A stretch of DNA of 63,530 bases. Origin: a virus (taxonomy: Duplodnaviria > Caudoviricetes). Shown piece by piece: positions 25,516-61,800 of this stretch. Below the pieces are notes generated by a model. That model made no database searches and was not told the origin of the DNA. It saw only the letters and a list, made by a program, of their open reading frames with translations. A program made the position numbers and the translations under genes. Every line of letters starts with the position of its first letter. Position 1 is the stretch's first letter. The stretch is taken from the IMG/VR virus record IMGVR_UViG_3300009705_000016, positions 1 to 63,530 of that record; one strand, given 5' to 3'.

Positions 25516-25522
25516 TACTATT

Positions 25523-25529: not shown

Positions 25530-25547
25530 TAAACCCCTTCTAATTCT

Positions 25548-34156: not shown

Positions 34157-37100
34157 CTATACTGTCTTTTCTTCTTTAATATAGTCGGAACTAAAGTTAT
34201 TAGGATTCAAGAAAATCTCATCTTCACCCAACTTTTTATTAATTACATATTTTCTTATCTCATAATGTAAGTGTCTCGCTGATGAGTTTCCGGTAGTCCC
34301 CATTATTCCTACCCTAGTCCCTTTAGTAATGCCTGCACCTATCGCAAGATTAGATATTGTTTTCTCTTTTAGATGAGCTATCCTAAATTGGTATTTAGAA
34401 GTTGCTCCTTCTACCCAAGCGGTCACATCTGATTGTTTAATTAATACCTTATCAACCCACATATAATTACCATAACCACTACCAGGTGGTCCAGGACATG
34501 CATTACCAGTAATACTATCATCCTTAGCAGATTTACGAGGGAAACATCCAGTACCTTTTCCTGAAATAATACCAGAAACTGGTGATACAATAGAAATGTC
34601 TTCAGCGTCAAACTCTGCTTTAGGTAGGTAATCTATCCCTTTATGGTTATATGAAAACTTAAGTCCGGTTGTTGAATTGGTTTTTGTTCTTTTTGCCCAA
34701 AAAGCTTGGAAGGGTTTCGGGTTTAAAATTTTATTTAGGTCGAGCGGGTCTTGTATTGGGAAGTCTAACTCAGTAAAATCTTCTTCAGTATTAATCACAT
34801 TATTAGCAATCTCTTGTTCTGTTAGATTGTGGGCATCTAATGAAATGTCTTGTTTAGAAGGTGGTTCTACATCATCTATTACGTCAAAATGTTTTATTAA
34901 TTTAGTTTGTATAGTCGTAAGTAAATCAGTTACTTTAGGTAAACTAGTAATACCAACCCTAACTCCAGTAAATGTTGTTGTCATATCATTAGGAGATAAA
35001 CTATGACTAACATCCATGATAAGGTATGGACCACTAAACATAGGAACATATCTTAGTTGAAAATAGGTTGTTGGTTGAATTAATGCGTTACCCATACAGG
35101 TTACTGAACATTTATACGACCTAGATTTATATAAATTAAATAAATTTAAAGAGTTTGTTGAGACTTTGGACCCACTGGCCATTTTACCTAGGTCCTCTAG
35201 GATTCTAAAAGACTCACTTGTGTTTGGAAATTCAGATTGGGATAAAGCAATGCTTTCAAATATCTGTTGGTTTGGTATTCCAAAATCAACAGCGAAAGCC
35301 ATAATCTTATTACTTAATTGTCTTTCCTCTTCAGTCTTAGGTATCGGACCACATAATGGGTTTGGGTTTGTTCTGTTCAAAACAAACGAATCATTATTAT
35401 AACCATAGTTAAAACTTTTTATATCCAAGCTCTCAGATGGTTTACCCACATATTGACACAGGTATTTAGGTGAAGACTTTGTAGTGTCAACCTCTTTAAA
35501 AGCACCAAACATAGTATCTCCTTGTGCTTGTGTGTTGTTACCTTGCATGTTATAAAAATTAACATATGATGGTAATGCTATCCAATTAAAACCATTTGAT
35601 GCACATATACTACTCATAAATCCAGCGATAGTCTGTTTAACAGATGTACTTGGTTCGTCCGTAAATGGTGTGTCTAACCCTAAAAATGCATATATATCAA
35701 TAATAGCCTCACTTCCTATATCTCTATTACCGTTATCTAAGAACATAAACCTCTCCATAATGGTATTGTGAAAAGGTATATTAGTACCTGCTGTCCTACT
35801 TGTATTGACATCCACACCTTGTACTTTGGTGCCTGATATCCATTTATCGTTAAATGTTTTAAATACCTGGTACAATTCTAACTTTAAATTGTCTGCTATC
35901 ACTTTAGGTCTTTCATCATCGGTATCGCTACCTCCAGTGGGACTATCATCTAAAGCTTTTAATGGGTCCATTTTAGCGATAGATTTAAAAAATGTATTGG
36001 TGTATGCTTTGGTGGTATCTTCCATAGCCCGTAATTGATTCTTCAAAATTACGTCAAAATCACTCTTAGTCATTCCAACGTTACCACCTGGTGAATTCTT
36101 TTCTGTAAAAGTTAGATATAATTTAAGTATTGGGGCAAATTGTAACACCAATATATGTGATATGTCATAATTCTTAAAAAAATCAAAACATATTTGCACT
36201 TTTGATAGGAACCCTGTAAGTGGTAGTGGTGGTGTCGGTCTTGGGAAGACCCACTCAGAAATATCTAATGTAAAACCTGCTGTTGGACTTGGAACTGCAT
36301 TATCATACTTAGGTAATGGCATATAAGTTTTTAATGTACCCTTATCTAAAAGATAAAATATTAGTGATTTTGTTGTTGTTGTGTCTGACGTTAAAGAAGT
36401 TAGTGGTACTGTTATATCCCATCCATTCACAGACCCATGTTTGTAAATTACTGACTGATTTAAAAAGATTCTACATACACTTAAGAATTTTTTATATTGA
36501 CTTTTGGCTAATTCTTCTGTTGTTGGTTTGGGTGATTCCGATTCTACTTCAGATTTTTTAAGTAACATAAAATCTCTAAATATACTTTTAAACTCAGTGT
36601 ATTTTCCTTCTACAATACTAGCGTCTGGATTTTGTGGTTCTGAAAAATTTAAAAATTGTGTTTCAAACTCATCTAAAACTTGTTTTGGAAATACGGATAA
36701 TAACTCACTAAAAGTATCAGACCCACCAACTAAATTTAGGTTCCAAGCTTCTTGTTCCGGTTTTGTTATATTAATTCTTTTAAGGTAACTACATGCTGGT
36801 ACAAAACCATATATAGCTCCATAGGTACCGGGAACCCCTCCTTGTACGTCAAATGAACCGTAACCAGCTCCAGCCCACAAAAATCTAGCACTACCATCAA
36901 ACCCAGCAGTGTTTATGTTATCCCCCATAAAGCTTAAATCGGTATTTACCAAACCTCCCGCAGATGGGTAAAGAATATAGTACGGTTCTACGTTTGGGTC
37001 TAAATCTTTTACCCCCACATTCCCTATTGTAGCTGAATCAGCGAAAGTTGTATAAAAATCATAGGATAAACCACCTTGTGTAAAAGATAGATTTTCTTCT

Positions 37101-40100
37101 TTTTGCATCTCTAGTTGGAATGAACTTAAAAAATTACTCTGTACGTCAGCTACTGGAATCCAACTACCTACAGGACTTAGTATGTTTTTACCTGTAATAA
37201 TATTATGGGTTACGTCTATAAGTCGTGGCCAAAACCCTAAAGTTACATTTGTGGTGTTTAAACCTGGTAATATATTACCGTCATTTGTAAAATCATAAAA
37301 TCCGAATCCATTTGCTTGACCTGGGTCTACATACCATTTGTCACACGCGATATTACCATCTGCTCCAGTATCTACACCATCTATAGCACCTAAACCACCG
37401 AACACACTATCTTCTTCTGGTGTAGTTCCATTGTTTTTATAGTTCCACCAAAGTGAACCTATTTTTAAAATAAAAGAATATGGTAGTTCGTGATAACCGG
37501 CTAATTGTTTAATTAATTGTGCGACATACCCACCATATTGATTTTTTGAATCAAAATCTTTTATTACTTTTTCTAAAGTACTACTTACCGGTAATGAATT
37601 TAAAAATAAATAAGCTGCTTCCGTGTACGGAGTTGGTGACGGTGTGGTTTCCTTCAGGTTTGCCTTATGTATTGCATTTGCAAACCAAGGTGTGTTTAAC
37701 ATAGACACACATTGTTTTAAGCCTGAAGTATTGTTTATACCTTCTGTTAGAGGTTGTAACAGTATATCTTGTTCAGTAGTGTCATAATACTCTAACCAGT
37801 CGCTGACCCCCACAAATGTCTTTATAACGTCCAGTTGGTCTGGTTTTGTAATTATACCAAAATTACCATACTTATCTGATTCCCAATTTAGATTTGAAAA
37901 AAATAATTTGTGGTTTTCTGTGCCATACACATTTGTTTGTGCAGGCATATCTAATTCATCTATAATGAAGAAGTCTGTCCCTGAAGCTAGATTACCACCA
38001 TCAGCTAATTTAGAAAATAAACTAGGTGTTGTAAAATTAAAAGGAAAAAAATCAAAGAACCCATCTTTTGTTTTTTTACTTTCCATGTAAAGCTTTTTAT
38101 AATCTATATAATTTCCATTATTTGTATATTGTTCTTTCACACTAGACGTGGGATACAGTCCAAAATTAGTATCTTTTATATTGCTCACATTAACTCTGTT
38201 ATTTAAATAAGGTGTGTTTATGTAAGCATTTTCATATAATTTGTATCTATCCGGTGATAATTTCTCTAATTCCTTTAATAAAGAATCGTAATCAAACGTA
38301 TTACCTTGGAAAAATTCTCCTAAGTCTATATCCTCTTTAATAGATGTTTCTAAATTCTTACTATCATTATCTCCAGCTTCCATCATGACGGCACCTAGTT
38401 GAGCGGGTTTACCTAATTGGTAACCTGTGACTCCTACGTAATTTGAAAAATCTTCCGCTCTGTCTAGTATCTCCCACAGTATAGAAGTTTTTTGTTTTAT
38501 CGTATAAGCTTCGTTGGTGAATGGAAATTCTCTTACTGATATAGGGGCTAACTCTATAAACTTAACCTCATTACTCATTGGTTCTTGTACTAAATTCTTT
38601 CTCGTAAGGACGGATTTGGTATATTCCTCTATGAACTCTACTTCTGGCCAGGTTTTTTTACTGTATGCCTTTGTAGTGGATAGACTACCCGCTGCTCCTG
38701 GATATTTCAATACCAATTTATTTGATTCATCATCAAATTCATAGTATTGGGGCCAAGGAAATACAGTATGTTCCCCTTTTACGGCATCTTTATACATTTT
38801 CTTATCAGTTATAACTGCTTTAACTCTATCAGGGTTGTCTCTCTGTTCAAACGCTAATTCATGCACTCTATCGAGTATTCTTAAATAAGTGTCAACACCA
38901 GCTATTACAACAGCGGTTAAGTTTCTGATGGTTGGGTCTATTGTTAGACTCTCTTTAAATACCCTATTAATTTTCTTAGTTACCTCTTCTTGGATTATGT
39001 TGTGATTTTTTTCAAATTCCTCTAGAACTCTCGTAAACACCCCACCGAAACTTTTAGTTGTTTTATCCAAAACGTAGTACCCTTCTTCAGGTACATCATT
39101 TATATTCTTTGCGTTGGTACTTCTAGCTCTTTGGTTTTCTAATTTAAAATCTCTTATTAGGTTAACCGAAGCGGGACCTTTATCTAAACCAAATGTTTTA
39201 TTTTCACCTAATACTTTTTGATACCCTTCTAGAATATATCTTAGTTTACTTTCAGCCTTTTGAATGTATTCTGTAGTTGTTTCATTTAACCTAATAGCTG
39301 TAGCTATCACTCTTTTACCATCACCACTTGCTGAACCTACACTAACATCTAGTGGTATGTCATTATTTCTATCTACCGACCAATTTTCAACCCAACCATT
39401 AGTCCCAAAAATAGCATTATAAAAACTTTTAAGTTTTGCTTGGTATATGGTTTGGTCATTTGTAAATTGTAAGTCTACTTTTTTAAAATTATTCTTTAAA
39501 TTATCGGTAAACGATTCAACCCTACCAATTAATTCATATATAGTTAAATGTGGAAAATTTGGTTCTATGTATTTTAATTCTTTATAGATTTTATATACGT
39601 CATCCAATATTTTTCTACCCAGTCCGTTCGCTTGTGGGTCCTCATTACTAGAAACTTGTCTAGTTGCTGGGTACAAATATGGAGCTAACATAGCTTGTTG
39701 TAGGTTTATGTCGTTTAATAAAGCTATATGATTACCAATAAAGTTAGCTGTTATATTATAATCACCAGAAGAGGAATCAAAACTGGCTTGAAAATTAATT
39801 AACGCTAGTTGGTATTTTACTGCCTGACCATAGTACCCTTTGATTGTTAAATCGAATTGTGGGTATGGTAAATGGAAGAAAGCTGTGTATGGGGTGTTGG
39901 TTTCTGCTTGTTCAAATAATGTTTTACCTCTAATATCAACAAAAGTTATATCTACTTGTGGGACAAAGGAAGAACTTATTTTTATCTCTATATTTTTAAT
40001 CCCAAATCCTTGGAAGTCGTTTTTATTATCTATAGTTTTAGAAAAAAAGGTTTGTCCGTCTTCGGTGGTATCTTCGTGTCTTTGGATTTTATTCACGGAT

Positions 40101-40414
40101 GGGTCGGTAAACCCTTCTGTCCAGTCACTATCTAAAGAACTTTTACCAACTGGTTTTAAAAAATTAATCTCACCGTCAAATAAATCTATTTTAACCCCAG
40201 TGTCAGAAGCTCCTTGACCTACTATTAACTTAGACCTAGGTATTACTCTTGCTACTAAATTTACATAAATTACTAAATCTTCGTGCCTAACTAACCTATC
40301 TTCTATACTTTGTCCGTTAGCACTCGTTATTTTATTTGGGTCTATTAAAACTAGATTGTCACAAACTTGTTCAACATATACTTTCTCACTAGAGTTAATA
40401 ATATCATCTGCCAT
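34157..40414 (-). CDS. Giant baseplate hub-like protein with C-terminal M23 peptidase (tail-associated lysin)
   Basis: HKGID, YGNY, IAHL and MGTTGNSSARHLHYEIR M23 motifs; follows the LysM/gp53-like gene. Confidence 0.7.
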   Translation of the reverse strand: MADDIINSSEKVYVEQVCDNLVLIDPNKITSANGQSIEDRLVRHEDLVIYVNLVARVIPRSKLIVGQGASDTGVKIDLFDGEINFLKPVGKSSLDSDWTEGFTDPSVNKIQRHEDTTEDGQTFFSKTIDNKNDFQGFGIKNIEIKISSSFVPQVDITFVDIRGKTLFEQAETNTPYTAFFHLPYPQFDLTIKGYYGQAVKYQLALINFQASFDSSSGDYNITANFIGNHIALLNDINLQQAMLAPYLYPATRQVSSNEDPQANGLGRKILDDVYKIYKELKYIEPNFPHLTIYELIGRVESFTDNLKNNFKKVDLQFTNDQTIYQAKLKSFYNAIFGTNGWVENWSVDRNNDIPLDVSVGSASGDGKRVIATAIRLNETTTEYIQKAESKLRYILEGYQKVLGENKTFGLDKGPASVNLIRDFKLENQRARSTNAKNINDVPEEGYYVLDKTTKSFGGVFTRVLEEFEKNHNIIQEEVTKKINRVFKESLTIDPTIRNLTAVVIAGVDTYLRILDRVHELAFEQRDNPDRVKAVITDKKMYKDAVKGEHTVFPWPQYYEFDDESNKLVLKYPGAAGSLSTTKAYSKKTWPEVEFIEEYTKSVLTRKNLVQEPMSNEVKFIELAPISVREFPFTNEAYTIKQKTSILWEILDRAEDFSNYVGVTGYQLGKPAQLGAVMMEAGDNDSKNLETSIKEDIDLGEFFQGNTFDYDSLLKELEKLSPDRYKLYENAYINTPYLNNRVNVSNIKDTNFGLYPTSSVKEQYTNNGNYIDYKKLYMESKKTKDGFFDFFPFNFTTPSLFSKLADGGNLASGTDFFIIDELDMPAQTNVYGTENHKLFFSNLNWESDKYGNFGIITKPDQLDVIKTFVGVSDWLEYYDTTEQDILLQPLTEGINNTSGLKQCVSMLNTPWFANAIHKANLKETTPSPTPYTEAAYLFLNSLPVSSTLEKVIKDFDSKNQYGGYVAQLIKQLAGYHELPYSFILKIGSLWWNYKNNGTTPEEDSVFGGLGAIDGVDTGADGNIACDKWYVDPGQANGFGFYDFTNDGNILPGLNTTNVTLGFWPRLIDVTHNIITGKNILSPVGSWIPVADVQSNFLSSFQLEMQKEENLSFTQGGLSYDFYTTFADSATIGNVGVKDLDPNVEPYYILYPSAGGLVNTDLSFMGDNINTAGFDGSARFLWAGAGYGSFDVQGGVPGTYGAIYGFVPACSYLKRINITKPEQEAWNLNLVGGSDTFSELLSVFPKQVLDEFETQFLNFSEPQNPDASIVEGKYTEFKSIFRDFMLLKKSEVESESPKPTTEELAKSQYKKFLSVCRIFLNQSVIYKHGSVNGWDITVPLTSLTSDTTTTKSLIFYLLDKGTLKTYMPLPKYDNAVPSPTAGFTLDISEWVFPRPTPPLPLTGFLSKVQICFDFFKNYDISHILVLQFAPILKLYLTFTEKNSPGGNVGMTKSDFDVILKNQLRAMEDTTKAYTNTFFKSIAKMDPLKALDDSPTGGSDTDDERPKVIADNLKLELYQVFKTFNDKWISGTKVQGVDVNTSRTAGTNIPFHNTIMERFMFLDNGNRDIGSEAIIDIYAFLGLDTPFTDEPSTSVKQTIAGFMSSICASNGFNWIALPSYVNFYNMQGNNTQAQGDTMFGAFKEVDTTKSSPKYLCQYVGKPSESLDIKSFNYGYNNDSFVLNRTNPNPLCGPIPKTEEERQLSNKIMAFAVDFGIPNQQIFESIALSQSEFPNTSESFRILEDLGKMASGSKVSTNSLNLFNLYKSRSYKCSVTCMGNALIQPTTYFQLRYVPMFSGPYLIMDVSHSLSPNDMTTTFTGVRVGITSLPKVTDLLTTIQTKLIKHFDVIDDVEPPSKQDISLDAHNLTEQEIANNVINTEEDFTELDFPIQDPLDLNKILNPKPFQAFWAKRTKTNSTTGLKFSYNHKGIDYLPKAEFDAEDISIVSPVSGIISGKGTGCFPRKSAKDDSITGNACPGPPGSGYGNYMWVDKVLIKQSDVTAWVEGATSKYQFRIAHLKEKTISNLAIGAGITKGTRVGIMGTTGNSSARHLHYEIRKYVINKKLGEDEIFLNPNNFSSDYIKEEKTV

Positions 40415-47040: not shown

Positions 47041-47055
47041 ATAGTTCTTTTAACT

Positions 47056-47062
47056 ATAAATA
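47056..47062 (-). promoter_or_regulatory. TATTTAT element (putative late promoter)
   Basis: 15 nt upstream of ATG 47040. Confidence 0.55.
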
Positions 47063-47063
47063 T

Positions 47064-48056: not shown

Positions 48057-48078
48057 TATACAATAACTATTATAAAAT

Positions 48079-48103
48079 AAAAAACTCACATAACTGTGAG
48101 TTT
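48079..48103 (-). terminator. Rho-independent terminator after the tail tube gene
   Basis: Minus strand aaactcaca-gtta-tgtgagtttttt. Confidence 0.8.
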
Positions 48104-48127
48104 CTTAATATTATATTTAAAATTAAA

Positions 48128-48616
48128 TTAGTAAACTAATATACATCTATCTGGTCTTAGTGTTGCTGCTATATTTGCCATACCCTCATCACTATAAGAT
48201 AGGTCATTGAAGTTTACGTCTGTTAAGAAACATCCTTGTAGTACCCACTTTTCTACCACTACCCCTGTTGGGTCTAACATTTCTAAATCTATATTCTTTT
48301 TATATCCAGCAGCGTAACCCATTCTACCTGTTACTGATTCTGCGTGTAATCTAACCCATTCCATCAATGCTTGTGAAGCTGAAGGACCAATCGGGTCTCT
48401 AAACGTTACATTGATTGTACCCCAAGTAAATCTACCAGCTACATACGTTGATGTATTTAGGAATGGTATTTCTACTGAACCTATTGTAACTTGTGGTCTT
48501 GATGTACTTTCTACGTACCACTCATTAATCCCTAAAGAAGAGTCAAATCTCATTATAAACCTATTCTTTTTCTTTGGTTCATACGGTACGGGCATTTTCA
48601 TTAATAAATCGGCCAT
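48128..48616 (-). CDS. Tail tube protein (T4 gp19-like)
   Basis: YEPKKKNRF, YVAGRFTWGTINVTFRD, GYAAGYKK, LDPTGVVVEKWVLQGCF. Confidence 0.9.
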   Translation of the reverse strand: MADLLMKMPVPYEPKKKNRFIMRFDSSLGINEWYVESTSRPQVTIGSVEIPFLNTSTYVAGRFTWGTINVTFRDPIGPSASQALMEWVRLHAESVTGRMGYAAGYKKNIDLEMLDPTGVVVEKWVLQGCFLTDVNFNDLSYSDEGMANIAATLRPDRCILVY

Positions 48617-48651
48617 GTTTTTTTAATTTTTAATTTTTTATTTCTTTATAT

Positions 48652-48658
48652 ATAAATA
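48652..48658 (-). promoter_or_regulatory. TATTTAT element (putative late promoter)
   Basis: 35 nt upstream of tube ATG 48616. Confidence 0.55.
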
Positions 48659-48679
48659 TACGTTTGCAGCAAAATAGTA

Positions 48680-49543
48680 TTAACTATCAATCTTAGATAC
48701 TATAATCTTATTTTTTTCTCCTTGTGATGTGTCATAAATAAAAAATTCCACACCAGGATATTCTATAGATAATTCTTTTTTGATAAAATCCATAACAGAT
48801 TCTATATTTTTTCTATCATCATCACTAAACCCAATACTTAATCTATCGTATTCTCCATCTGTTAATTTTTTAACTCCATTCACAACCTTTTCTACATAAT
48901 CTCTTAATGCTATTTTTTTACCTTCTTCTGGTCTATCAGCAGCAGCAGAATCCAAACCAAACTTATCTTTAAACTCTGAAGATGTAACTGGCGAATAATC
49001 ATTTTGTGATAAATAAAAATCTATTTTTTCTTCCATGTTCATGTCTTGGGTTGAGGGGTATACATTTTCTATACTGTTTAACATTTGTTTGACTTCGGAT
49101 GGGTTAAAGGTCATACCAATTACAGTTCGGACACCTTCTTTTATTGCGTGAGGTGGTGTACCCCTTGCGGTAATAATGGAGAATGGGTGTGCGTTTATTA
49201 AAGATTCTTTAAGTTTTTCGAAACTAGGTGCAAACTTTTTATCTTCTATTGCTTTTTTAACATCTGAAATAAATGTTTGTGGTTCTTCAAAATCCATAAA
49301 AGAATGGTCCGTTAATCTATATTCACTATCATTTCTTACGTCCGCAAAATCTTCTGTACTTACATTTGTGGGTACCCAATCTAAACCATCTTTTTTTTCC
49401 ATCTTAATTTCGGTAGGCATAAAAAGTATATTATCATCCCAATCAAAAGCATAACCACGTATTTTATCTGTGGTCATTACCTCACCTATTTCTTTAATTA
49501 ATTTGGTTAATTGTATTTCTGTTAGAATTAAACTTCTTTTCAT
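48680..49543 (-). CDS. HAD-superfamily phosphatase/nucleotidase-like protein with N-terminal LTExQL leader
   Basis: Motif I YAFDWDDNIL, motif II IITARG, motif IV IGFSDDD. Confidence 0.65.
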   Translation of the reverse strand: MKRSLILTEIQLTKLIKEIGEVMTTDKIRGYAFDWDDNILFMPTEIKMEKKDGLDWVPTNVSTEDFADVRNDSEYRLTDHSFMDFEEPQTFISDVKKAIEDKKFAPSFEKLKESLINAHPFSIITARGTPPHAIKEGVRTVIGMTFNPSEVKQMLNSIENVYPSTQDMNMEEKIDFYLSQNDYSPVTSSEFKDKFGLDSAAADRPEEGKKIALRDYVEKVVNGVKKLTDGEYDRLSIGFSDDDRKNIESVMDFIKKELSIEYPGVEFFIYDTSQGEKNKIIVSKIDS

Positions 49544-49548
49544 ATACT

Positions 49549-49555
49549 ATAAATA
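49549..49555 (-). promoter_or_regulatory. TATTTAT element (putative late promoter)
   Basis: 5 nt upstream of ATG 49543; TATTTATAGTATATGAA is identical at 63243-63259. Confidence 0.6.
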
Positions 49556-49569
49556 TTAAGTTGTTAAAT

Positions 49570-49598
49570 AAAAAAACCCCACATTTCTGTAGGGTTTT
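49570..49598 (-). terminator. Rho-independent terminator
   Basis: Minus strand aaaaccctaca-gaaa-tgtgggg followed by a T run; GNRA loop. Confidence 0.8.
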
Positions 49599-49620
49599 AT
49601 TATATAGTAATATTACGTTA

Positions 49621-49812
49621 TTACCAGTGTCTCATTTTAATAGATTCTTCATATTCAACAAAACCTACAATTTTGTCTAATTTCTCGTTTATCTCAGCAA
49701 ATTGTTCGTCATAATTTTTAGAACTAGCACCAATAACCTCTTCTTCTTCTTTAATTATTGTTTTTTTAATTATGTTAATTAATTCACGTTCTGTTAGTCT
49801 TATTTTTTTCAT
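49621..49812 (-). CDS. Small protein with KIxLTExEL leader (63 aa)
   Basis: MKKIRLTERELINIIKKTIIKEEE. Confidence 0.7.
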   Translation of the reverse strand: MKKIRLTERELINIIKKTIIKEEEEVIGASSKNYDEQFAEINEKLDKIVGFVEYEESIKMRHW

Positions 49813-49824
49813 AATAATTTTATA

Positions 49825-50748
49825 TTAACAAGGTAATGGTGTACCATCTGGTGGACATTCAGCAAACCAATTTGCAAATTTGAGCCATGTCCTTCTCCAC
49901 CATCCTTTTCCACCATCTTTTATTATCGGTGGTATAACTAACCTACCTGAAGATTCATACTGACTAACCATCATTTGTACCGCACCAATAATTTCCTGCA
50001 ATTCTGGAATCATTCCATGTAGTCCACCAAGTGATTGTCCGTCTTTACCTACAGATTCTGGTGTAAGGGTTTGCATAAAAGATGATGCTGAATTTAAAGA
50101 ACCCATTAATGGTACAAGTTGGCTCATCATTCTTGCGTCTTCTCCGGATGCTTTACCTTCATCTCTTCCATCTGTTTCCATTTGTTCATTACCTGCGGCC
50201 ATTGGGTCATTAGAACCACCACCTTGAGATTGTCCACCCATCCAACCATCTATATCCATATCTGGTAAGAATACTGTACCTTTTGTTAAATCAGGCATCT
50301 CCCATCGTCTTTCGTTTATAACCCTTCCAATAACTCTAGATAAATCTCTTTCAGATAGTCTAGTTTTTCTTGGGTTAACTCTTTCAAAATCAACATCTAA
50401 CATTCCATAGTCTACCTTTTTATAACCATTACTAGATACTTTTACTGCTCGTCTTGGTGCTTGTTCAGCAAGAACCCCTCTAAACGTTCCTTTACCGAAT
50501 CTAGTTTTATTTTTATACTCAAATTCATAAATTGGTATTCCTGATGGAGATTTACCAACTCGTCTTATATTTTTCTTTAGTCTTGAGTCTGAATCAAACC
50601 ATCCATGTATTGTATCAAGTACTTTGCCAATTGCGAGTAAATCAAGCACCCAAGATTTCCATCTCCACTCAAGTAATAATTGTGATTCAGAAATTGTACG
50701 AACTATTCTCGTTAAGTCTGATTCTTTTAATCTAATTGTTTTTGCCAT
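49825..50748 (-). CDS. Two-leader polyprotein-like protein with peptidase S74 (intramolecular chaperone) domain
   Basis: Leader at aa 1-27; SDSRLKKNI...GIPIYEFEY...FRGVLAEQ...VDYGML at aa 53-121; second leader RKTRLSERDLSRVIGRVINE at aa 127-146. Confidence 0.7.
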   Translation of the reverse strand: MAKTIRLKESDLTRIVRTISESQLLLEWRWKSWVLDLLAIGKVLDTIHGWFDSDSRLKKNIRRVGKSPSGIPIYEFEYKNKTRFGKGTFRGVLAEQAPRRAVKVSSNGYKKVDYGMLDVDFERVNPRKTRLSERDLSRVIGRVINERRWEMPDLTKGTVFLPDMDIDGWMGGQSQGGGSNDPMAAGNEQMETDGRDEGKASGEDARMMSQLVPLMGSLNSASSFMQTLTPESVGKDGQSLGGLHGMIPELQEIIGAVQMMVSQYESSGRLVIPPIIKDGGKGWWRRTWLKFANWFAECPPDGTPLPC

Positions 50749-50783
50749 TTTTAAAATTTTTTTATTTTATTGTTTGTTATTTT

Positions 50784-50790
50784 ATAAATA
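50784..50790 (-). promoter_or_regulatory. TATTTAT element (putative late promoter)
   Basis: 35 nt upstream of ATG 50748. Confidence 0.55.
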
Positions 50791-50840
50791 TAAAGTGCTT
50801 AATAAAAAGTAACCTATACTATATTATTCCTAAATTCTAT

Positions 50841-51074
50841 TTAATACCTGTCCCTGTCCCAAGGCCATCTAAAATCACAGCACCCCATACCAAATATACA
50901 ACAAAGCCACTTTAATTGTTGTGGGTCCGTATTTGGTGGAACAGTTACACCCATCCTATCACTTAAATCTGTAAGGTGTTCAGTTGCTTTATTACCTTCT
51001 CCTCTATCTTGTTCACTAACGACTCTACGTATAAGTCTAGTTAGGTCTTTTTCTGTTAATTTAATTTTTCTCAT
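50841..51074 (-). CDS. Small leader-bearing protein with CCx5CC peptide (77 aa)
   Basis: MRKIKLTEKDLTRLIRRVVSEQ...KWLCCIFGMGCCDFRWPW. Confidence 0.7.
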   Translation of the reverse strand: MRKIKLTEKDLTRLIRRVVSEQDRGEGNKATEHLTDLSDRMGVTVPPNTDPQQLKWLCCIFGMGCCDFRWPWDRDRY

Positions 51075-52309
51075 ATTACACTTGGATTATATTTATTTCC
51101 TGCTTTATTTACTCTATTGAACCATTTTTTCATATCTTTTATGTCAGATTCAGTAATAGGGTTTGTAGTTTTTAATGTTCTTCTCTCAGTTGTTATATTC
51201 CCTTGAGTAGGTGGTGTTGAGTTACATGGTACTTCTGGACAAGACTTAGGACAACGTTTCCCAGGGGTAACACTATATGGTTTTTTACCTACACATTTAC
51301 AACACCTTTTCTTTTTAGGTGATGTTGTAGATGTACTACTAGAATCATCCTCTCCCATTTCTTGCTCTCTTTTTCTTCTACCACCATCTTTATCAATTCC
51401 AGCTTGTTTTACTTGTCTGATAAAATCTTTAAAACTTTTTGGTTTAGGGTGGTTTTCAAATACATCAGGATTTGCTACCATGAAGTCTTGAAATGCTTCT
51501 TCATTTTCTTCTGGTGGTCTAACCATCCACCAATCTCTACCACGACCATATTTAAACAATCCCCAAGCTGTTGTTAGTATTGAAAGCCATAAAACTTCAT
51601 TTATAGGTTGTCTACCACTTTGTTCTTCAAACATACCCCTGATTGTGTCTATTGGTGAACCCTCACAACATTTCATTCTCAATGCACAACAGAAAAAACC
51701 ACCTAGTATCCACTTACCTTGAGGTGTACCACTTGGTTTTGGAGGCATTGTACCCGACCTAAGATGTTTTGCACATAAACTTTCATTTCCACCTGCAGAT
51801 TTACAAGCTTTCATATTTTCCGGTGTGTCAAATTTACCTTTTTGTTTACCTCTCCCGGTATCTCTCTCCCTTAAGTCTTGTCTACCTCTCTTTTTCTCAC
51901 CTAAGGCTCTATCACGCAAACTAACAAACTCTCTATGACTTTTTGGTTTTGGTCCACCTTCAAATACATCAGGATTTGCTACCATGAAATCTTGAAATGC
52001 TTCTTCGGTTTCGTTTGGTGGTATAGTCATCCACCATCCCTCATCCTTTCCGTATTTGTAAATATCCCAAGCTAACAGAAGTGCCTTAATCCACCATTCC
52101 GTTAATAATTGTTTATTTTCATTTAGTTGTCTACCTTTTGGCTTTTGGACTCGTTTTATTCTATTAGCCACTGGATTAATCTTACTAATTAATCTTTGTA
52201 ATTGTTGTTCACTTACAACCATTTTTTGTTTTTTATTTTTAGTATAGGTTTTCCTATTACTTTTAGGTAACCCTATTTCCTCTGATAAAATTTGTTTTTT
52301 AAATTTCAT
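51071..52309 (-). CDS. Modular polyprotein-like protein with duplicated Trp-rich cassette and Cys modules (412 aa)
   Basis: GRQ...E linkers; two W-rich peptide + EEAFQDFMVANPDVFE modules; CCx5CC and CCxC...C...C...C modules. Confidence 0.7.
   Translation of the reverse strand: MKFKKQILSEEIGLPKSNRKTYTKNKKQKMVVSEQQLQRLISKINPVANRIKRVQKPKGRQLNENKQLLTEWWIKALLLAWDIYKYGKDEGWWMTIPPNETEEAFQDFMVANPDVFEGGPKPKSHREFVSLRDRALGEKKRGRQDLRERDTGRGKQKGKFDTPENMKACKSAGGNESLCAKHLRSGTMPPKPSGTPQGKWILGGFFCCALRMKCCEGSPIDTIRGMFEEQSGRQPINEVLWLSILTTAWGLFKYGRGRDWWMVRPPEENEEAFQDFMVANPDVFENHPKPKSFKDFIRQVKQAGIDKDGGRRKREQEMGEDDSSSTSTTSPKKKRCCKCVGKKPYSVTPGKRCPKSCPEVPCNSTPPTQGNITTERRTLKTTNPITESDIKDMKKWFNRVNKAGNKYNPSVI
51455..52006. 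repeat. 48-bp in-frame direct repeat, 2 copies 504 bp apart, 1 mismatch
   Basis: ttcaaatacatcaggatttgctaccatgaa(g/a)tcttgaaatgcttcttc at 51455-51502 and 51959-52006. Confidence 0.9.
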
Positions 52310-52318: not shown

Positions 52319-55300
52319 TTATATATCTTCAAATGAAGCTCCTGTAGGAGTTATTAGGAATTCAATAAATATGAATTCAAGTGCTCTTGTTGGTTTAATG
52401 TAAATCTTACCGTTCATCTCATTTCTATCGATTTCTTCTGGGTCGTCTGATAACACAACTCTAAAGTCTGTTAAACCTCTATCTCTTCTTATAGAGTCTA
52501 ATATAGGGTTAACTAGGTCTAAGAATTGTTGTCTTACCACATCATCATTTTGTTCAAATAATAATCTAACCGCAACTGCTGAAATCAGTTTTCTAGTTTG
52601 TAATAATAATCTTCTTACATTTATTCTATCTAACGCTGATTCTTTAACTTGTAACGTCTTATTACCAAAGATAATCGGGCCTACATCACTAAATGTAGCG
52701 ATTGGATTAAGTCTACCAACATATAATGTATCTCTATCGTCTAGAGTTAGTTTTGTTCTAGCTTTAATTGCGTTAACAATACCTCTAGTATATCCAGCCG
52801 ATGCGAACCATGGGAAAGCTATATTATCTGTTAATGCTAAATTTCTAGTAACCTCACCTGTTGGTGGGATATACAATTGTTTGTTCGTATTGTTATCTCT
52901 AACTAGAACCCATGGGTAATAAGTTGCTGTATAGTTAGAATCTATAAAACTGTCTTCCATATTATTAACAGCTTCTGTTGGACTTATTTTGTTACTAGCG
53001 TCTGTAGTTGAGTTGATAAATAGGTTATAATCTGGTGTTGTTGTAATATAAAGTGAATCAGCTCTCTCAGTTTCTACCATGTCTATAGCGTCGTTTACTA
53101 AAGCTAAATTATTTACATAATCCACACCTGGAGTCGCAAACACATTAATGTCTACAGCTTCTGGATTTTCAAATTTATGTATTGCTTGTCTATAAGCGTC
53201 ATAATCAGTATTAGATTCTGTTGTAGAAATCCTTTTAAAAGAACCTAGACCAGTAGCGTCTGTATAAGTTGAGTCGGCACATGCTCCGTATTTGTAACCT
53301 GTCATCCCCAGTCTATACCCATCTAGATTTGTTCTAGTTTTTCTATACTCATCCCATCCGTCAAAACCACCATAAGGTACTAACGTGAATTTTCTAGATT
53401 GTATCTTATAATAAGGGTCTGTTGTTTTAGTTGGTTCTGATTGGAACGAAGCGTCACCCACCATAAACATAGACTTACCACTTAATGTACTAGCTGTTTC
53501 TGTTAAATAAGAACCAGAACCTGCTATAACTACAGTAGCTCCAGAATCCATGTGGAATCCTTGTGTTAAGTTTGGCCAATCACTACCTGTTGTACTAGTA
53601 CAAACAGATGTTGGTGTTTTAAACCCTTTATACTCAAAGAAATCATAATCAATTGCTGCTCCATCACCTGTTGAGTATCCTAGGTAGTTTTTTCTAATAT
53701 TATCACCAGCTGAAATTGAAGAGTTGCTCATACCTCCCGTAGAATTATAGTATGGGTCAAATATTGTTTCACCTGGGGTGAAATATTTAGTTTTCCATTT
53801 TGGGTAAGGGTTTACCGTACTACTACAAGATTCTCTAAATTTATAACCCTCAAATCCTGCTGGTAAAGCGTCCTTTAAGTCACCATCGACAACCGCATCT
53901 GCTAATTCTAACATTGTATATGTAGATTTTAACTCATATTCACCATCTGAAGTACCAATTTTTCTAGCTATAAAGTTTGGTGCTGTCGGGTCTAGTGTAC
54001 ATCTTGTGTATTTTTCAAAAACTATAGGGTTAGCATCTGTATCGTAGAAATCTCTAATAACCACATCAAACTCAACTCTTTCAAAAGAAATGTTTGTTAA
54101 TGATATTTTATATTCTCTATTACCTGATGAACCGTCTGATATAGATATAAATCTAAATAATCTAGAAACTTCATTACCTCGTAATTCCGAAACAACATAT
54201 GGTGTTCTAGGTGTTTGCCATTCATTCATGTACCAACCTAAAGATGTTCTATTAGTATTATTCCATCTTGCCGCTGGAAGATAACATACACAACAATTTA
54301 TTCCTCTAATTTTTTGTCTTCTATATAAATATTTTAATAAGTTAGGGTAAATTTCTTCTACAAAAATAGGAATTTCATTACTATCTCTATCAAATACTTT
54401 TCTTCCCAACACTCTTGATAAATAATTTTTCTTACTACTATCTAAAGATGTTGTAAATTTAGATACAACACCATCGTCAGTTTTTGCTGAAATTCCGAAG
54501 TCAGCAAATGGGTCTCTTAATATGTCTTCATAAGTCCCGTCACAATTAAAGTTTACGTCACCTTGTTTGTAACCGTCTCCTGTACTTGCACTAATTTTAT
54601 ATACTGGTCCACCAGTTGTTAATGTACTTTCACCTCTGGACCTTAAAGTTGCGATTGTCATATTGTGGTATTCCGTATCCGCACTTACACAGTCGTACGT
54701 TGAGTAACAACCACTTAATGTCATAGCTAAATAAGTTACCGCTGAACAACTTCCAGTATAGAATGTCGTAAAGGCTGAAACAGAGTTACCGGTAAAGAAC
54801 CAACTATTAGCTGGGTCTGCACTTATACTGTTATTCACTACCATACCCGCTGTTACAGCCGCTGAACCACCGTACACCAGACTATTGATAAACTTGACAT
54901 TATCACCTGTCCCACCTGGTATTAAACCAGTATTGGAGAATCCACTTATAGTTACCTGTACGGCCGTATAAGATGGTGAACTACCACCAATAGATGTTCC
55001 TGCACAACTTTGTAATTGATAGTCGGTTACCCCTCCTGAATATTGTACCGCGTTAAATGTTTCTACAGCTGCAGATAATGTACTACCTGTACCATTTGAC
55101 CCCACAAAAGGGTAAACAGTAGGTTTATATGCTGATAAACCCAACATACCAGCCCCCACATCACTACCCCAAACTTGACCTCCCGAATAAGAGAAGTAAT
55201 TATTCACACTAAAACCACCAGGTACATTGTTACCAGCGTTAGTATCTGCACCAAAGAACGACCATTCACCCCATGAGGTTGCCGATGTTGATGCTGTATA

Positions 55301-56431
55301 ACTATTTAAGTTAGTAACGTAAGTTGAACTTCCTTCACTTATTAAGTTTGGTAAAATAGCGTAAACCGTAGTTGATGTCTTATTGTCTGATGAACCGGAT
55401 ACACCTGTTAAAGTGGCTCCTTCTACATATGTTGTAGCTGTAACCGCTGAAGACGCGAACATACTAAATGAACCACCTGAATAACAACTATTTCTACAAT
55501 CAGTACCACCAGTTCCATAATCAAATAAACTATTATACCAACCATCGTTTGTGTCACCTGAAAAATCTGCGGATTGTATAGCGTTAGGGTATGTTGCTCC
55601 TGCTCCAGCTTCTCCTGGTCCTAAATCGGACTCAACACCTAATCTATTATAAACATCGACTGGTAAACCTGTCATACCTGTAATAGATGCGAATTGTATA
55701 GCTGTACATCCTGTAGGTATAAAACCATAGTGGTAATATTCAGTAGCTCCTGTTTCGTTGAATGAACTTTGGTTATTATTTAATACGTTATTGGTAAAGT
55801 GGGCTATATCCTGAACTAAGGTCCCTACAGAATCTCCTTCACCGTCATACATTGTTTCACCCGTTATCTTATTTGTTGTTCTAAATGGACCATTTTCTCC
55901 CCCAACTAATCCTGTTCCTACTGTAGCACCACTTAAAGCATCTGCAAATGCAGCGGTAACGTGATTTAACGTACTATAAATGTTAGATGCGTTTATTGTA
56001 CCACCTGTAAGTGGAACGTAAACAATGTCTGACCACCCTGTTGAGGTCATAGCTGTTGAATTAGTAGCCACATGTAATGGGTCCAACTCACCAATAGTTA
56101 ATAATTGCCATGATGGACCAGCATCATAACCAGATAAACCCAATACCCTTGTTATGAATAACTGATTTGATTGTGATAGATAAGACCGTGCTATAAATGA
56201 AGTCTCATATTTAGGAATTTGTGAGTCCGTATACTTTTCTGGGTCGGTATCCCCAAATCGATTTCTAAAGGAGTCGAAAGAATCTATAAATATAGGTTCA
56301 AACGCTGGTCCCTTTTTAGTTTCACCAACAACCCCTAAAGTTGTCACTCCCACACTCTGCGCTACGAAGGTTAAATCTTTCTCCGCGGTATAAACACCGG
56401 GAGATACGAATACTTTTGAATTTTCTGCCAT
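52319..56431 (-). CDS. Tail sheath protein (gp18-like) with a large insertion
   Basis: FVSPGVYTAEKD, GETKKGPAFEP, YYPWV, PWFASAGYTRG, GNKTLQ...ALDRINVRRLL, IKPTRALEFI. Confidence 0.93.
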   Translation of the reverse strand: MAENSKVFVSPGVYTAEKDLTFVAQSVGVTTLGVVGETKKGPAFEPIFIDSFDSFRNRFGDTDPEKYTDSQIPKYETSFIARSYLSQSNQLFITRVLGLSGYDAGPSWQLLTIGELDPLHVATNSTAMTSTGWSDIVYVPLTGGTINASNIYSTLNHVTAAFADALSGATVGTGLVGGENGPFRTTNKITGETMYDGEGDSVGTLVQDIAHFTNNVLNNNQSSFNETGATEYYHYGFIPTGCTAIQFASITGMTGLPVDVYNRLGVESDLGPGEAGAGATYPNAIQSADFSGDTNDGWYNSLFDYGTGGTDCRNSCYSGGSFSMFASSAVTATTYVEGATLTGVSGSSDNKTSTTVYAILPNLISEGSSTYVTNLNSYTASTSATSWGEWSFFGADTNAGNNVPGGFSVNNYFSYSGGQVWGSDVGAGMLGLSAYKPTVYPFVGSNGTGSTLSAAVETFNAVQYSGGVTDYQLQSCAGTSIGGSSPSYTAVQVTISGFSNTGLIPGGTGDNVKFINSLVYGGSAAVTAGMVVNNSISADPANSWFFTGNSVSAFTTFYTGSCSAVTYLAMTLSGCYSTYDCVSADTEYHNMTIATLRSRGESTLTTGGPVYKISASTGDGYKQGDVNFNCDGTYEDILRDPFADFGISAKTDDGVVSKFTTSLDSSKKNYLSRVLGRKVFDRDSNEIPIFVEEIYPNLLKYLYRRQKIRGINCCVCYLPAARWNNTNRTSLGWYMNEWQTPRTPYVVSELRGNEVSRLFRFISISDGSSGNREYKISLTNISFERVEFDVVIRDFYDTDANPIVFEKYTRCTLDPTAPNFIARKIGTSDGEYELKSTYTMLELADAVVDGDLKDALPAGFEGYKFRESCSSTVNPYPKWKTKYFTPGETIFDPYYNSTGGMSNSSISAGDNIRKNYLGYSTGDGAAIDYDFFEYKGFKTPTSVCTSTTGSDWPNLTQGFHMDSGATVVIAGSGSYLTETASTLSGKSMFMVGDASFQSEPTKTTDPYYKIQSRKFTLVPYGGFDGWDEYRKTRTNLDGYRLGMTGYKYGACADSTYTDATGLGSFKRISTTESNTDYDAYRQAIHKFENPEAVDINVFATPGVDYVNNLALVNDAIDMVETERADSLYITTTPDYNLFINSTTDASNKISPTEAVNNMEDSFIDSNYTATYYPWVLVRDNNTNKQLYIPPTGEVTRNLALTDNIAFPWFASAGYTRGIVNAIKARTKLTLDDRDTLYVGRLNPIATFSDVGPIIFGNKTLQVKESALDRINVRRLLLQTRKLISAVAVRLLFEQNDDVVRQQFLDLVNPILDSIRRDRGLTDFRVVLSDDPEEIDRNEMNGKIYIKPTRALEFIFIEFLITPTGASFEDI

Positions 56432-60153: not shown

Positions 60154-61800
60154 ATGAGTCTTACTAAAAACAATATGAGTTTGTTGCCTTTGTTGAGTGA
60201 TGTTATTTCAAGAACAATCAAAGAACAGGAGGAAATCCCATCAGACACTTTGATAAATATGCAGAGTAATGTTGGTCCTGATTTCAAAGGAACGTTGACT
60301 TACTGTAGTTTTTTAGAATACTGGAAAAACAGATATGATGAAAAATATAACGCAAACAAAGGGTCTAGTTACTCCCAACCAGTAAAGGACGCTTTTGAAA
60401 AACATAAAACTTCAAAAATAACATTAAGAATTCTTAATACGGTGTCTTATTTAGAAAGTTTGGGTAACGTAAAAGCTGATAACGGTAGATGTTATGGTCT
60501 ATTTCAATACTGTAGAGAATATTTTTCTGATTATGGTATAAACAGTAAGTCCGACGCACAAAACGCTGACATAGCTACTAGACAATTTGTAAAACACGCT
60601 ACAATACTAGGTAATACATTATCTGGTAATCTTGGTTTGGATGTTTTCTCTGCAGAAAATCAATGGTTGTTATACTTGAGTTGGCAACAAGGTAGAGCTG
60701 GTACTGTAAAAATATATAAAGGTTGTGATGATGTGGAAACTTTTACGGGGGATGAATTATATGATACTACTCCAGAAATAATAGGCCCTACAACTGCTGA
60801 TGATATAATGTTAGGTAAAGCTGTACTTAAAAAGGGAGACTCTAGTCAGTTAGTTACGATGATACAAAGAATGTTATTATACGATTATGAAATAGACTTG
60901 GGTGAGGATGGTGTAGATGGGATTTTCTTAGTTGATACTCATAACGCTGTTTTGGAGTTTCAAAAAAAGTTTGATTTGAAACCAGATGGTGTTATTGGTC
61001 CTTGTACTTTTGATACTCTATCAGAAGGAAGTGTAAGATATTGTTGTAAGAGTGATGCGTGTAAAAAAGATGAATGTAAGGATTCTAACTGGTGTACATG
61101 GCAAAGTACTTTTAAAAGAAAAAAGACAACTAAAGATAAGACTGATAAAGAATCTGAAGTAGATGTAGAGAATGTAACCCCTAGTAAAGGATTACCTGGT
61201 AATTTTGCTGAAATACCTGGTGGTCAGGGTAATTTTAGAAGTGAACAACCTTCCCTTAGAGAGTTTGCTAAACTATTTGAAGAATACCCTGATATTGAGC
61301 GTGTTGTTAGAATGAACGGTAATAAAGATAGTGGTGGACTTAGTATGGAAAGTGAAAAAAAATATGTAGAATCTACAGGTAGAGAGTATATTTGGTTTAA
61401 CGCTCATAATCCATGGAGTGCTAAAAATTCGTACACCCTAGAAGATACACCTGGTTATACTGGAGCTGTAAAATTAGGTTTAGACGAACTTAATCAAGGT
61501 AATACTTTCATACATTGTACCCATGGTGCTGATAGAACTGGTTTTATTGTAGCTGCATATATAAAAGAAAGGTTGGGTTGGGATAATGAAAGATTGTGGG
61601 AGTACACAGTTGGGTTTAATAGTTGGGATGGTGGATATGTAGGTTGTTGTACTAACGCACACAGGTCAGGTAAGTTGATTTGTAATGGTACTGCCTTTGC
61701 TTATTACTTAGCTTCATTTTACCCTATACCAGAGTGGTGTGCAGCTAAAGAAGAAAGAATGAGTTGTAAGATTTGTAAAAATTTGGAAGGTAATGGATGA
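60154..61800 (+). CDS. Lytic transglycosylase-like + peptidoglycan-binding + Cys-based (tyrosine/dual-specificity) phosphatase fusion
   Basis: YLES...YGLFQY...LYLSWQQG; LKKGDSSQLVTMIQRML...GVDGIF...AVLEFQKKFDLKPDGVIGPCT; NFRSEQP...IHCTHGADRTG (CX5R). Confidence 0.75.
   Translation: MSLTKNNMSLLPLLSDVISRTIKEQEEIPSDTLINMQSNVGPDFKGTLTYCSFLEYWKNRYDEKYNANKGSSYSQPVKDAFEKHKTSKITLRILNTVSYLESLGNVKADNGRCYGLFQYCREYFSDYGINSKSDAQNADIATRQFVKHATILGNTLSGNLGLDVFSAENQWLLYLSWQQGRAGTVKIYKGCDDVETFTGDELYDTTPEIIGPTTADDIMLGKAVLKKGDSSQLVTMIQRMLLYDYEIDLGEDGVDGIFLVDTHNAVLEFQKKFDLKPDGVIGPCTFDTLSEGSVRYCCKSDACKKDECKDSNWCTWQSTFKRKKTTKDKTDKESEVDVENVTPSKGLPGNFAEIPGGQGNFRSEQPSLREFAKLFEEYPDIERVVRMNGNKDSGGLSMESEKKYVESTGREYIWFNAHNPWSAKNSYTLEDTPGYTGAVKLGLDELNQGNTFIHCTHGADRTGFIVAAYIKERLGWDNERLWEYTVGFNSWDGGYVGCCTNAHRSGKLICNGTAFAYYLASFYPIPEWCAAKEERMSCKICKNLEGNG

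Follow-up and report, generated by a model that had tools for sequence, protein, structure and literature searches.

Why would a phage place an S74/ICA-type domain directly behind a peptide of 25 residues? Domains of this type normally follow long trimeric tailspikes, trimerise them and autocleave at the Ser of SDxRxK. The question is raised by a 307-residue open reading frame (ORF) on the minus strand of IMG/VR virus record IMGVR_UViG_3300009705_000016, which was analysed over its whole length of 63,530 nucleotides (hereafter the window). Our reading, to which we give an even chance of being right, is that this is a late gene of an uncultured, T4-like giant phage from the sea, and that its product is a polyprotein of leader-tagged cargo; the peptide and a second product of 161 residues would be carried by the particle and would target the envelope of the host. 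This reading draws on sequence comparison and on analogy with known phages.

The chain runs from a leader ending in LLE through the 25-residue peptide and a domain opening with SDSRLKKNI to a second leader and a second payload. This layout and its coordinates were proposed by a model that had seen only the letters and a list of ORFs (the first-pass annotation), and they are exact on the sequence. There is no competing frame at 49825-50748, where overlapping ORFs on both strands reach at most 67 residues. The features of the gene are as follows.

49825-50748, minus strand: 307-residue ORF, a putative leader-tagged polyprotein (stop codon 49825-49827; 61 homologues, 22-sequence alignment)
50668-50748, minus strand: leader 1, residues 1-27, ending L25-L26-E27 (50668-50676), a site resembling those of T4-type head proteases
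50593-50667, minus strand: peptide 1, WRWKSWVLDLLAIGKVLDTIHGWFD, residues 28-52 (WRWKSW...HGWFD; four Trp, net charge 0, predicted helix)
50386-50592, minus strand: S74/ICA-type domain, residues 53-121 (69 residues), matched by Pfam, PHROGs, phmmer, AlphaFold2 (AF2) modelling and predicted viral ICA structures
50590-50592, minus strand: putative catalytic Ser53, at the start of SDSRLKKNI
50575-50577, minus strand: putative catalytic Lys58 of the S74/ICA-type domain
50311-50370, minus strand: leader 2, residues 127-146, ending I144-N145-E146 (independent E-value 8.9e-9 with the hidden Markov model (HMM) of the window's leaders, 3.1e-4 with an independent HMM)
49828-50310, minus strand: C-terminal product, residues 147-307 (161 residues), with a Gly-rich linker, a conserved motif and helices at 202-227, 247-267 and 280-295
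50173-50208, minus strand: conserved DPMAAGNEQMET, residues 181-192, within the C-terminal product
49858-49911, minus strand: second Trp-rich helix, GKGWWRRTWLKFANWFAE, residues 280-297, near the end of the C-terminal product
49828-49857, minus strand: Cys-Pro tail CPPDGTPLPC, residues 298-307, the end of the protein

We infer the cleavages, trimerisation, packaging and membrane action that make up the proposed mechanism. The S74/ICA-type domain would fold, probably as a trimer, and its Ser53-Lys58 dyad would cut the chain before Ser53, leaving peptide 1 with a defined C-terminus at Asp52. Each fragment would keep its own leader helix, which would act like a T4 capsid-targeting sequence (CTS) and take it into the prohead. 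A T4-type head protease would next cut after Glu27 and Glu146. The products would be a 25-residue Trp-rich hydrophobic peptide (residues 28-52) and a 161-residue helical protein ending in the second Trp-rich helix. Both would be carried by the virion and, at infection, would act on the envelope of the host, most likely by membrane insertion during DNA entry. The S74 domain would be a self-removing cap that keeps the peptide soluble and oligomeric until assembly, with the peptide as the variable, exchangeable part.

The S74/ICA-type domain and the peptide before it

The first-pass annotation had named Pfam PF13884 as a check, and the domain passes it when searched as residues 27-125 alone (23.6 bits, E 6.5e-5, marginally above the cut-off of 22), whereas the full-length protein falls short (20.7 bits, E 5e-4). 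The score rises to 26.8 bits in P0020, an orthologue with one such domain, and PF13884 matches 19 of 30 members of the S74 subfamily. PHROG 6121 (E 1.5e-11) and PHROG 4287 (E 7.4e-8) match residues 48-119, restricted to profile positions 315-388 of 392, so that their long N-terminal body is unmatched. Using phmmer exhaustively over 1.84 billion representative proteins, we obtained 1557 proteins at E<=1e-3, 299 at E<=1e-10 and 8 at E<=1e-30, nearly all through residues 40-125, with the S74 stretch usually at the matched protein's own C-terminal end.

The full-length AF2 monomer has a mean predicted local distance difference test score (pLDDT) of 56.8, too low for fold searching; it places a helix in peptide 1 at residues 32-51 (pLDDT ~72). 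With a 30-sequence alignment, the domain is modelled at pLDDT >90 as a small, mostly beta unit. This model has 17 matches at E<=1e-3 among the predicted viral structures of BFVD (E 4e-9 to 8.5e-4, query TM-score 0.55-0.73), mostly named ICA or endosialidase chaperone. Judged by these profiles and models, the S74 match is beyond chance: marginal in Pfam, it has solid backing from PHROGs, from phmmer and from the predicted viral folds.

The putative active site is conserved. Ser53, Asp54, Arg56, Leu57 and Lys58 are invariant in all 22 aligned homologues while neighbouring residues vary, and all of 30 short members of the S74 subfamily keep the Ser and the Lys. The spacing of Ser53 and Lys58 is the Ser-x4-Lys of MYRF and the endosialidases, as set out in the excerpted text of PMC3742443, where the MYRF dyad is S578/K583. 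From this motif we infer self-cleavage at Ser53.

The client, in turn, is as short as the first-pass annotation had claimed: 52 residues stand ahead of Ser53, 27 of them leader, in place of a long fibre or tailspike. Among 80 viral loci, a genuine S74 Ser lies within 60 residues of an intact start only in the six members of this S74-peptide family. The annotation had set this client against tailspikes, and in that part it needs amending, as the S74 proteins most closely related to it are not tailspikes but belong to the virions of short-tailed phages. The closest domains, 41-57% identical over residues 53-124, end proteins of 200-400 residues on viral contigs of 20-70 kb. In Brucella phage Tb-type genomes the relative follows two tail-tube-like structural genes and precedes a peptidoglycan hydrolase, and on two marine contigs it precedes proteins of 442-532 and 2100-2200 residues; we take this slot to be the internal or ejection protein slot of T7-like genomes. 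In 131 of 157 S74 relatives, hydrophobicity is higher in the 20-residue segment ahead of the Ser than in the remainder of the protein (mean Kyte-Doolittle value, KD, 0.19 vs -0.57), and this segment is rich in Gly and Ala (16.6% and 14.8%). The giant-phage peptide looks like a minimised version of this hydrophobic pre-S74 end that has been given a leader.

A word-seeded search for homologues of the whole protein returned 61 proteins, about two dozen of them with the full architecture, and 22 were aligned. The alignment has 41 invariant columns at identities down to 34%, and an [LIVMF]xE is located 16-30 residues before the S74 Ser in every sequence. Mean pairwise identity is 0.77 in the S74 domain, 0.75 in the DPMAxGNEEMET motif, 0.51 in leader 1, 0.45 in leader 2, 0.34 in peptide 1 and 0.26 in peptide 2. 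The homologues thus have the variable peptide and constant flanks that the first-pass annotation had told its readers to look for, and three near-identical pairs differ essentially in the peptide alone. The window protein and its nearest relative, P0001, are identical at 300 of 307 positions, and all seven differences fall at residues 37-48, within peptide 1. The P0001 peptide is the same as that of P0003, although P0003 is only about 71-75% identical overall. P0022 and P0024 (250/285 identical) have identical leaders and ~96% identity from S74 onward, with 30-residue peptides of unrelated types between them; P0019 and P0021 are likewise near-identical with unrelated peptides.

The homologue peptides are 16-30 residues long, mostly Trp-rich and often basic at the start, and fall into at least three types (KWVLRPWVKQVITIGKAIGNIISAWGWCCG-like, KWDWAKLKRDLKNIASWVGIFNGIF-like and RRRKWFVKAIIDIITTIGAA-like). 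This comparative evidence supports a released, exchangeable peptide module. Since the peptide is what is swapped between otherwise identical genes, it is marked as a specificity determinant, which could be tracked in marine viromes.

Leaders, head protease and the tail cassette

The window is a whole virus record of 63.5 kb with a G+C content of 34%. CheckV puts it at ~20% completeness, which corresponds to a phage genome of roughly 300 kb. By Pfam and PHROGs, it encodes a contractile tail (sheath, tube, baseplate J and gp25), and it has T4-type replication genes (gp32, a UvsX-like RecA and a DnaB-like helicase). Judging by sheath matches, there is no close cultured relative; the best are cyanophages, at 31-34% identity over part of the sheath length.

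The 307-residue gene is no isolated case. It is one of five consecutive leader-tagged genes between those for the tail sheath and the tail tube, which are listed here in their order on the minus strand.

52319-56431, minus strand: tail sheath, 1370 residues, the upstream border of the cassette (Pfam, PHROGs)
51071-52309, minus strand: p412, with a leader at residues 30-51, two [LI]xE sites with Trp-rich helices, and Cys-rich stretches
50841-51074, minus strand: p77, with a leader and then a CC..CC Trp-rich tail
49825-50748, minus strand: the 307-residue gene
49621-49812, minus strand: p63, with a leader and then an acidic helix
48680-49543, minus strand: p287, with a leader and then an enzyme-like domain with FDWDDN
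48128-48616, minus strand: tail tube, the downstream border of the cassette (Pfam, PHROGs)

A motif scan and an HMM place six leader copies at 49525-52216 on the minus strand, two of them in the 307-residue protein. The HMM was built from these copies and hits nothing else in the window (next best E 0.55). With an independent HMM of 67 leaders taken from the contigs of other viruses, four of the five genes are recovered at E<=1e-3; it recognises p77, p63 and both copies in the 307-residue protein, gives p287 a weak score (E 0.025) and misses p412. Across the homologues, leader 2 ends in [LIV]xE in 21 of 22 sequences, P0004 having TNE, and E146 is invariant.

A DNA pattern for the leader, which fixes AT-rich codons and therefore under-samples, finds at least 124 stretches in viral contigs, and 80 loci with their flanks were examined. 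Among the matches listed, 81 of 85 are N-terminal, no more than 12 residues from the first Met, and the proteins bearing them, 63 distinct ones, measure 75-426 residues; the leader consensus is MKKIIRLTESDLTRIVKRVIxE and the leaders end in [IVL]xE. The tagged proteins in this set are diverse: 55 of the 63 lack a Pfam family at E<=1e-3, PG_binding_1 or LysM is above its cut-off in six and just under it in a seventh, and the other Pfam rows are DUF6576, above the cut-off, and Annexin, below it. Small leader-tagged proteins with little beyond a PG_binding_1 or LysM module occur at L165, L193, L207, L235, L242, L172 and L189. No export signal was seen by eye in the leader-tagged PG_binding_1 and LysM proteins, and peptidoglycan binders of this kind are consistent with entry into the periplasm from the particle.

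In other lineages the same payload stands behind other leaders: MKKxLLTERFQELAGIK..., which is also on a neighbouring gene there, MNKNYLKQLIKEEIQQLNE, and MKKSDLKNLIKEEIKRI...LTE. Such swapping would be the expected look of a portable address tag.

The complete leader-bearing genomes tested also carry a protease that could remove the leader. Peptidase_S77 (PF03420, the T4 gp21 family) scores 78-84 bits in all five leader-bearing genomes tested, which measure 281-326 kb and are 96-100% complete. A gp21-family search of the window and four related fragments or short-tailed contigs found none (0/5), and was also silent in all 14 control genomes, so it is uninformative alone. From its matches, giant phages with a T4-type head protease make wide use of the leader to tag the N-termini of proteins that are otherwise unrelated. 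In the five complete genomes (L287-L291), a conserved gene of 69-71 residues comes next after that for the gp21-family protease, and then an acidic, coiled-coil-like gene of 309-343 residues, which is probably the scaffold. The leader HMM has no match at E<=1 in the genes flanking the protease in these genomes.

The cassette keeps its place among relatives of the window. All related contigs with sufficient flanking sequence have the order sheath, p412-like gene, (p77-like gene), S74-peptide family, (p63-like gene), p287-like gene and tube, the p77 and p63 equivalents each being present in some contigs only. Identity to the window on these contigs is 97.5-98.8% for the tube, 82% for the sheath and only 40-55% for the S74-peptide protein, which makes the cassette a fast-evolving island within a conserved tail module. 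In a second lineage the S74-peptide gene lies near a tail-fibre-like gene and a terminase, not between sheath and tube.

Several neighbours of the gene have features of their own. Families match only the last ~300 residues of the 1370-residue sheath; the other ~1000 are rich in Ser, Thr and Gly and have no family. p412 (51071-52309, minus strand) has an internal duplication with two Trp-rich helices, each after an [LI]xE (LLTE|WWIKALLLAW... and PINE|VLWLSILTTAW...) and each upstream of a conserved PPxExEEAFQDFMVANPDVFE block. Its Cys-rich stretches are FFCCALRMKCCEG and KKRCCKCVGKK...CPKSCPEVPC; one relative is fused to the S74-peptide gene (P0063), and another has a terminal S74 of its own (P0025). 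The tail of p77 behind the leader has two Cys pairs and Trp (LKWLCCIFGMGCCDFRWPW). p287 yields a well-folding model (Atlas predicted template modelling score 0.82), and its FDWDDN motif is reminiscent of haloacid dehalogenase phosphatases. Its Atlas neighbours are viral, DUF2608 appears only as a lead with a score of 0.90, and no Pfam family matches. p287 is 82-99.7% identical across relatives, far above its neighbours.

Elsewhere in the window, a 2085-residue protein (34157-40414, minus strand) has a C-terminal M23 peptidase match of 27.5 bits against a cut-off of 28.7, and is possibly a cell-wall-cutting tail or hub protein. A 548-residue protein without a leader (60154-61800, plus strand) has a peptidoglycan-binding domain (34.8 bits) and weak dual-specificity and tyrosine phosphatase matches. 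Among the sequencing runs listed, four DNA runs contain at least half of the sampled words, one of them a possible source, and RNA runs contain small shares, to which no weight is given.

On contigs of the second lineage, a 131-residue gene directly upstream of the S74-peptide gene (L093 9556-9951, plus strand; also L097 and L098) resembles GTA_holin_3TM at 24.2 bits, against a cut-off of 24.8, and is followed by a gene for a pyridine-nucleotide-disulphide oxidoreductase. L093 also encodes a 956-residue protein (421-3291, plus strand) that joins a cytidylyltransferase-like start to a SET domain (35.1 bits) and DUF6267 (324.6 bits). On L094, which carries a family member, a 1110-residue protein (5484-8816, plus strand) ends in a Por_Secre_tail (type IX secretion) sorting domain at 46.8 bits, which hints at a Bacteroidota host, and several ORFs begin with a third leader type, MxLKE[LV]Kx[LM]I...xE.

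The transcription signals around the gene are the following.

50783-50791, minus strand: ATATTTATA, a promoter-like motif 35-43 nucleotides upstream of the ATG of the 307-residue ORF
49548-49556, 48651-48659, 47055-47063 and 25522-25530, minus strand: further copies of ATATTTATA, several just upstream of late structural genes
49573-49598, minus strand: terminator-like hairpin after p63
48078-48107, minus strand: terminator-like hairpin after the tube gene

The window contains 10 copies of ATATTTATA, against 4.25 +/- 2.04 expected, a count reached in 0 of 100 shuffles. The motif also precedes the tube, p287 and 720-residue protein genes. It is a candidate late promoter element distinct from the T4 late-promoter TATAAATA, for which we found only weak one-mismatch matches upstream of the cassette genes (0-1 mismatch searched). 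Sigma-70-like sites number 15 in the window, fewer than in shuffles (21.3). The copy of ATATTTATA at 50783-50791 and the hairpin at 49573-49598 suggest that the S74-peptide gene and p63 form a two-gene unit.

Competing readings

A number of observations weigh against the reading of the gene as packaged cargo with a self-removing cap. Some concern the domain. Foldseek of the domain model against the PDB gave no match at E<=1e-3, and VIA-align placed the MyRF ICA 7dc3_A at Z 2.8 (root-mean-square deviation 2.1, 52 residues) and 3gud_B at Z 2.2, scores that unrelated folds equalled. Searching PDB sequences with the domain and with the 30-sequence profile returned no ICA entry, only chance rows at E>0.5. 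Others concern the leaders. The five complete leader-bearing genomes lack the S74-peptide family and yield only leader-length matches and one fibre S74. This ~20% genome fragment has no head protease, scaffold or capsid gene, and the link between leader and protease consequently rests on other genomes. The site preference of T4 gp21, L or I at P3, is taken from general background. A lineage with another N-terminal leader keeps the first leader type internally, as leader 2, so leader 2 may be a structural helix and not an address tag.

The peptide itself also counts here. It had been called amphipathic, but it is not measurably so: its net charge is 0, and its hydrophobic moment as a helix, 0.17, is no higher than in shuffled sequences (z = -0.2, 500 shuffles). 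Several homologue peptides do show amphipathicity (z up to 4.0), together with a positive charge of +3 to +6. In the window peptide, Trp clusters at both ends, with Asp and Lys in the middle; as speculation, this layout may be better suited to an oligomeric membrane-spanning helix than to a surface-active one. Among the 157 S74 relatives, no 20-residue segment before the domain reaches classical transmembrane hydrophobicity (0/157 at KD>=1.6).

The position of the cassette between sheath and tube is equally compatible with a role in the tail. S74-trimerised helices could form a plug or an accessory like a tape-measure end in the tube or baseplate, with the leaders as tags for tail assembly or chaperones. 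The recurrence of the five-gene cassette between these two genes in every contig with enough flank speaks for a tail component, as do the facts that S74 domains are classically tail-fibre modules and that trimeric helical proteins fill tail tubes. We nevertheless consider it unlikely. The leader is found on 63 distinct, mostly small and unrelated proteins (among the matches listed) scattered over genomes of ~300 kb, and a tail lumen would hardly have room for them all. At their ends the leaders have the Glu motif of a head protease, and that protease is present in every complete genome tested. The gene of the second lineage, near its tail-fibre-like gene and terminase, also has a different position.

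A second possibility is that S74 only folds and trimerises, leaving the chain uncut or the leader retained, so that the working unit would be the whole trimeric protein with N-terminal hydrophobic helices. Trimerisation of the MYRF ICA requires a C-terminal helical zipper, according to the excerpted text of PMC3742443. The domain here is a minimal one of 69 residues with no such zipper, which speaks for an uncut chain and against our reading. The model of residues 27-125 holds only a 4-residue helix, and the next helix after the domain in AF2 is leader 2, which might substitute for the zipper. The whole S74 subfamily ends directly after the beta part. Arguing for a cut, Ser53, Arg56 and Lys58 stay invariant while their neighbours vary, and S74 is the very C-terminus in most subfamily members, as in self-removing ICA domains.

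The end of the protein bears on the same point. At one alignment position after the second Trp-rich helix, the 22 homologues have a stop (7), a Cys-rich tail like that of the window protein (10), a second S74 domain (4: P0005, P0006, P0008 and P0014) or a Hint domain (1). The stop-type endings fall within a few residues of the helix, and the Vint-type Hint domain of P0007 begins at Cys305 (47.7 bits, cut-off 27). Where a plain stop alternates with two autoprocessing domains that are unrelated to each other, the simplest reading is that all three serve to end the mature chain there, which would mean self-removal at this second site. The Cys-rich tails could equally serve oligomerisation, which keeps the uncut trimer alive. 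Taken together, we find it improbable, to about the degree of a tail component.

Toxin and immunity modules are often variable and swappable, and a hydrophobic, Trp-rich peptide with these properties could also be made and used in the infected cell for lysis or as a toxin (holin-, disruptin- or bacteriocin-like) and never be packaged; the GTA_holin_3TM-like neighbour in the second lineage points the same way. Several features speak against such a peptide. There is no export signal and no conserved immunity-like partner, p63 being found in only some contigs. The gene lies among structural genes, behind a ATATTTATA motif that it has in common with the tube gene, and its leader family is common to peptidoglycan-binding proteins that need delivery from outside. 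We give this explanation little credence. That the S74 stretch is a decayed tail-fibre remnant and the rest chance, which the first-pass annotation named as the finding that would overturn its view, is hardly credible: the full-length Pfam score is below the cut-off, but S74 is the best-conserved region (0.77, with Ser53 and Lys58 in 22/22), 41 columns are invariant in 22 sequences, the ORF is intact in all relatives and its neighbours are conserved.

If the preferred reading of packaged, self-released cargo is taken further, a wider picture can be drawn, which is possible and on balance doubtful. The particles of giant marine T4-like phages would contain hypervariable Trp-rich peptides of 25-30 residues, swapped by recombination and cut from tagged polyproteins by the head protease, by S74 and in some relatives by Hint. 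S74-templated trimers of these peptides would insert into the inner membrane of the host and form a channel or pilot for DNA entry, and their turnover would reflect an arms race with injection blocks of hosts or prophages. The S74 ends of short-tailed phage ejection proteins would do the same job.

The passage of DNA through the inner membrane is poorly understood for contractile-tailed phages, and a particle-borne, trimer-templated membrane peptide would, if true, be a concrete candidate. An S74/ICA domain that caps a hydrophobic client of so few residues and then removes itself, and that alternates with Hint or a stop at a second site, would be a use beyond fibres and MYRF. It would also suggest a possible job for the unexplained S74 ends of many short-tailed phage virion proteins.

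Comparison with known systems

The domain resembles the ICA/Peptidase_S74 domains of endosialidase tailspikes and of MYRF, a eukaryotic transcription factor, in its SDxRxK start, its Ser-x4-Lys dyad, its Pfam match and its place directly behind the part to be released. MYRF is a case of an ICA domain working outside tail fibres, as described in the excerpted text of PMC3742443. The present domain differs in having 69 residues and no zipper, in a client that is a 25-residue helix and not a long triple beta-helix or a DNA-binding domain, and in its position in the middle of the chain, where a second cargo follows.

The closest S74 subfamily consists of proteins from the virions of short-tailed phages that end in S74. 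They fall under PHROG 6121 ('virion structural protein') and PHROG 4287 ('DNA ejection protein'), and the 326-residue structural protein of Brucella phage Tb-type genomes is an example. They have in common with the window protein a Gly/Ala-rich, relatively hydrophobic segment ahead of the Ser. Theirs is a Gln/Ala/Gly-rich body of 200-330 residues with no leader and with S74 at the C-terminus, whereas here the body is one helix. The gene position also differs, being between the sheath and tube of a contractile tail here and with tail-tube genes or large internal virion proteins there. Literature searches found no description of the role of S74 in these virion proteins. Full-text searches (supplements excluded) gave no account of S74 on a short peptide or on ejection proteins, or of this leader family, the excerpted text of PMC3909814 mentions S74 on tail fibres only, and PMC13381572 refers to neither S74 nor self-cleavage.

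The leader recalls the internal proteins IPI, IPII, IPIII and Alt of T4: a short N-terminal tag is common to unrelated proteins and has a Glu cleavage motif at its end, and the phages that bear it encode a gp21-family protease (five of five complete genomes). The T4 CTS is ~10 residues long, whereas the leader here has ~22-27 residues, its own consensus and an internal second copy. The cargo is also different, being a polyprotein with an additional putative autoprotease, and its packaging is a prediction. In T4, internal proteins are loaded by way of the CTS and gp21 cleaves after Glu, and in the giant phages SPN3US and phiKZ many head-packaged, ejected proteins are trimmed after Glu by a gp21-related protease (both from excerpts of PMC5694885). 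The likeness to SPN3US and phiKZ lies in this cut after Glu, which is described for ejected head proteins there and predicted here; their motif is A/S/G-x-E, their propeptides are not one shared tag, and they have no autoprotease. The parts of the present system are known, namely a CTS-like tag, an S74 autoprotease and virion cargo, and their combination is new.

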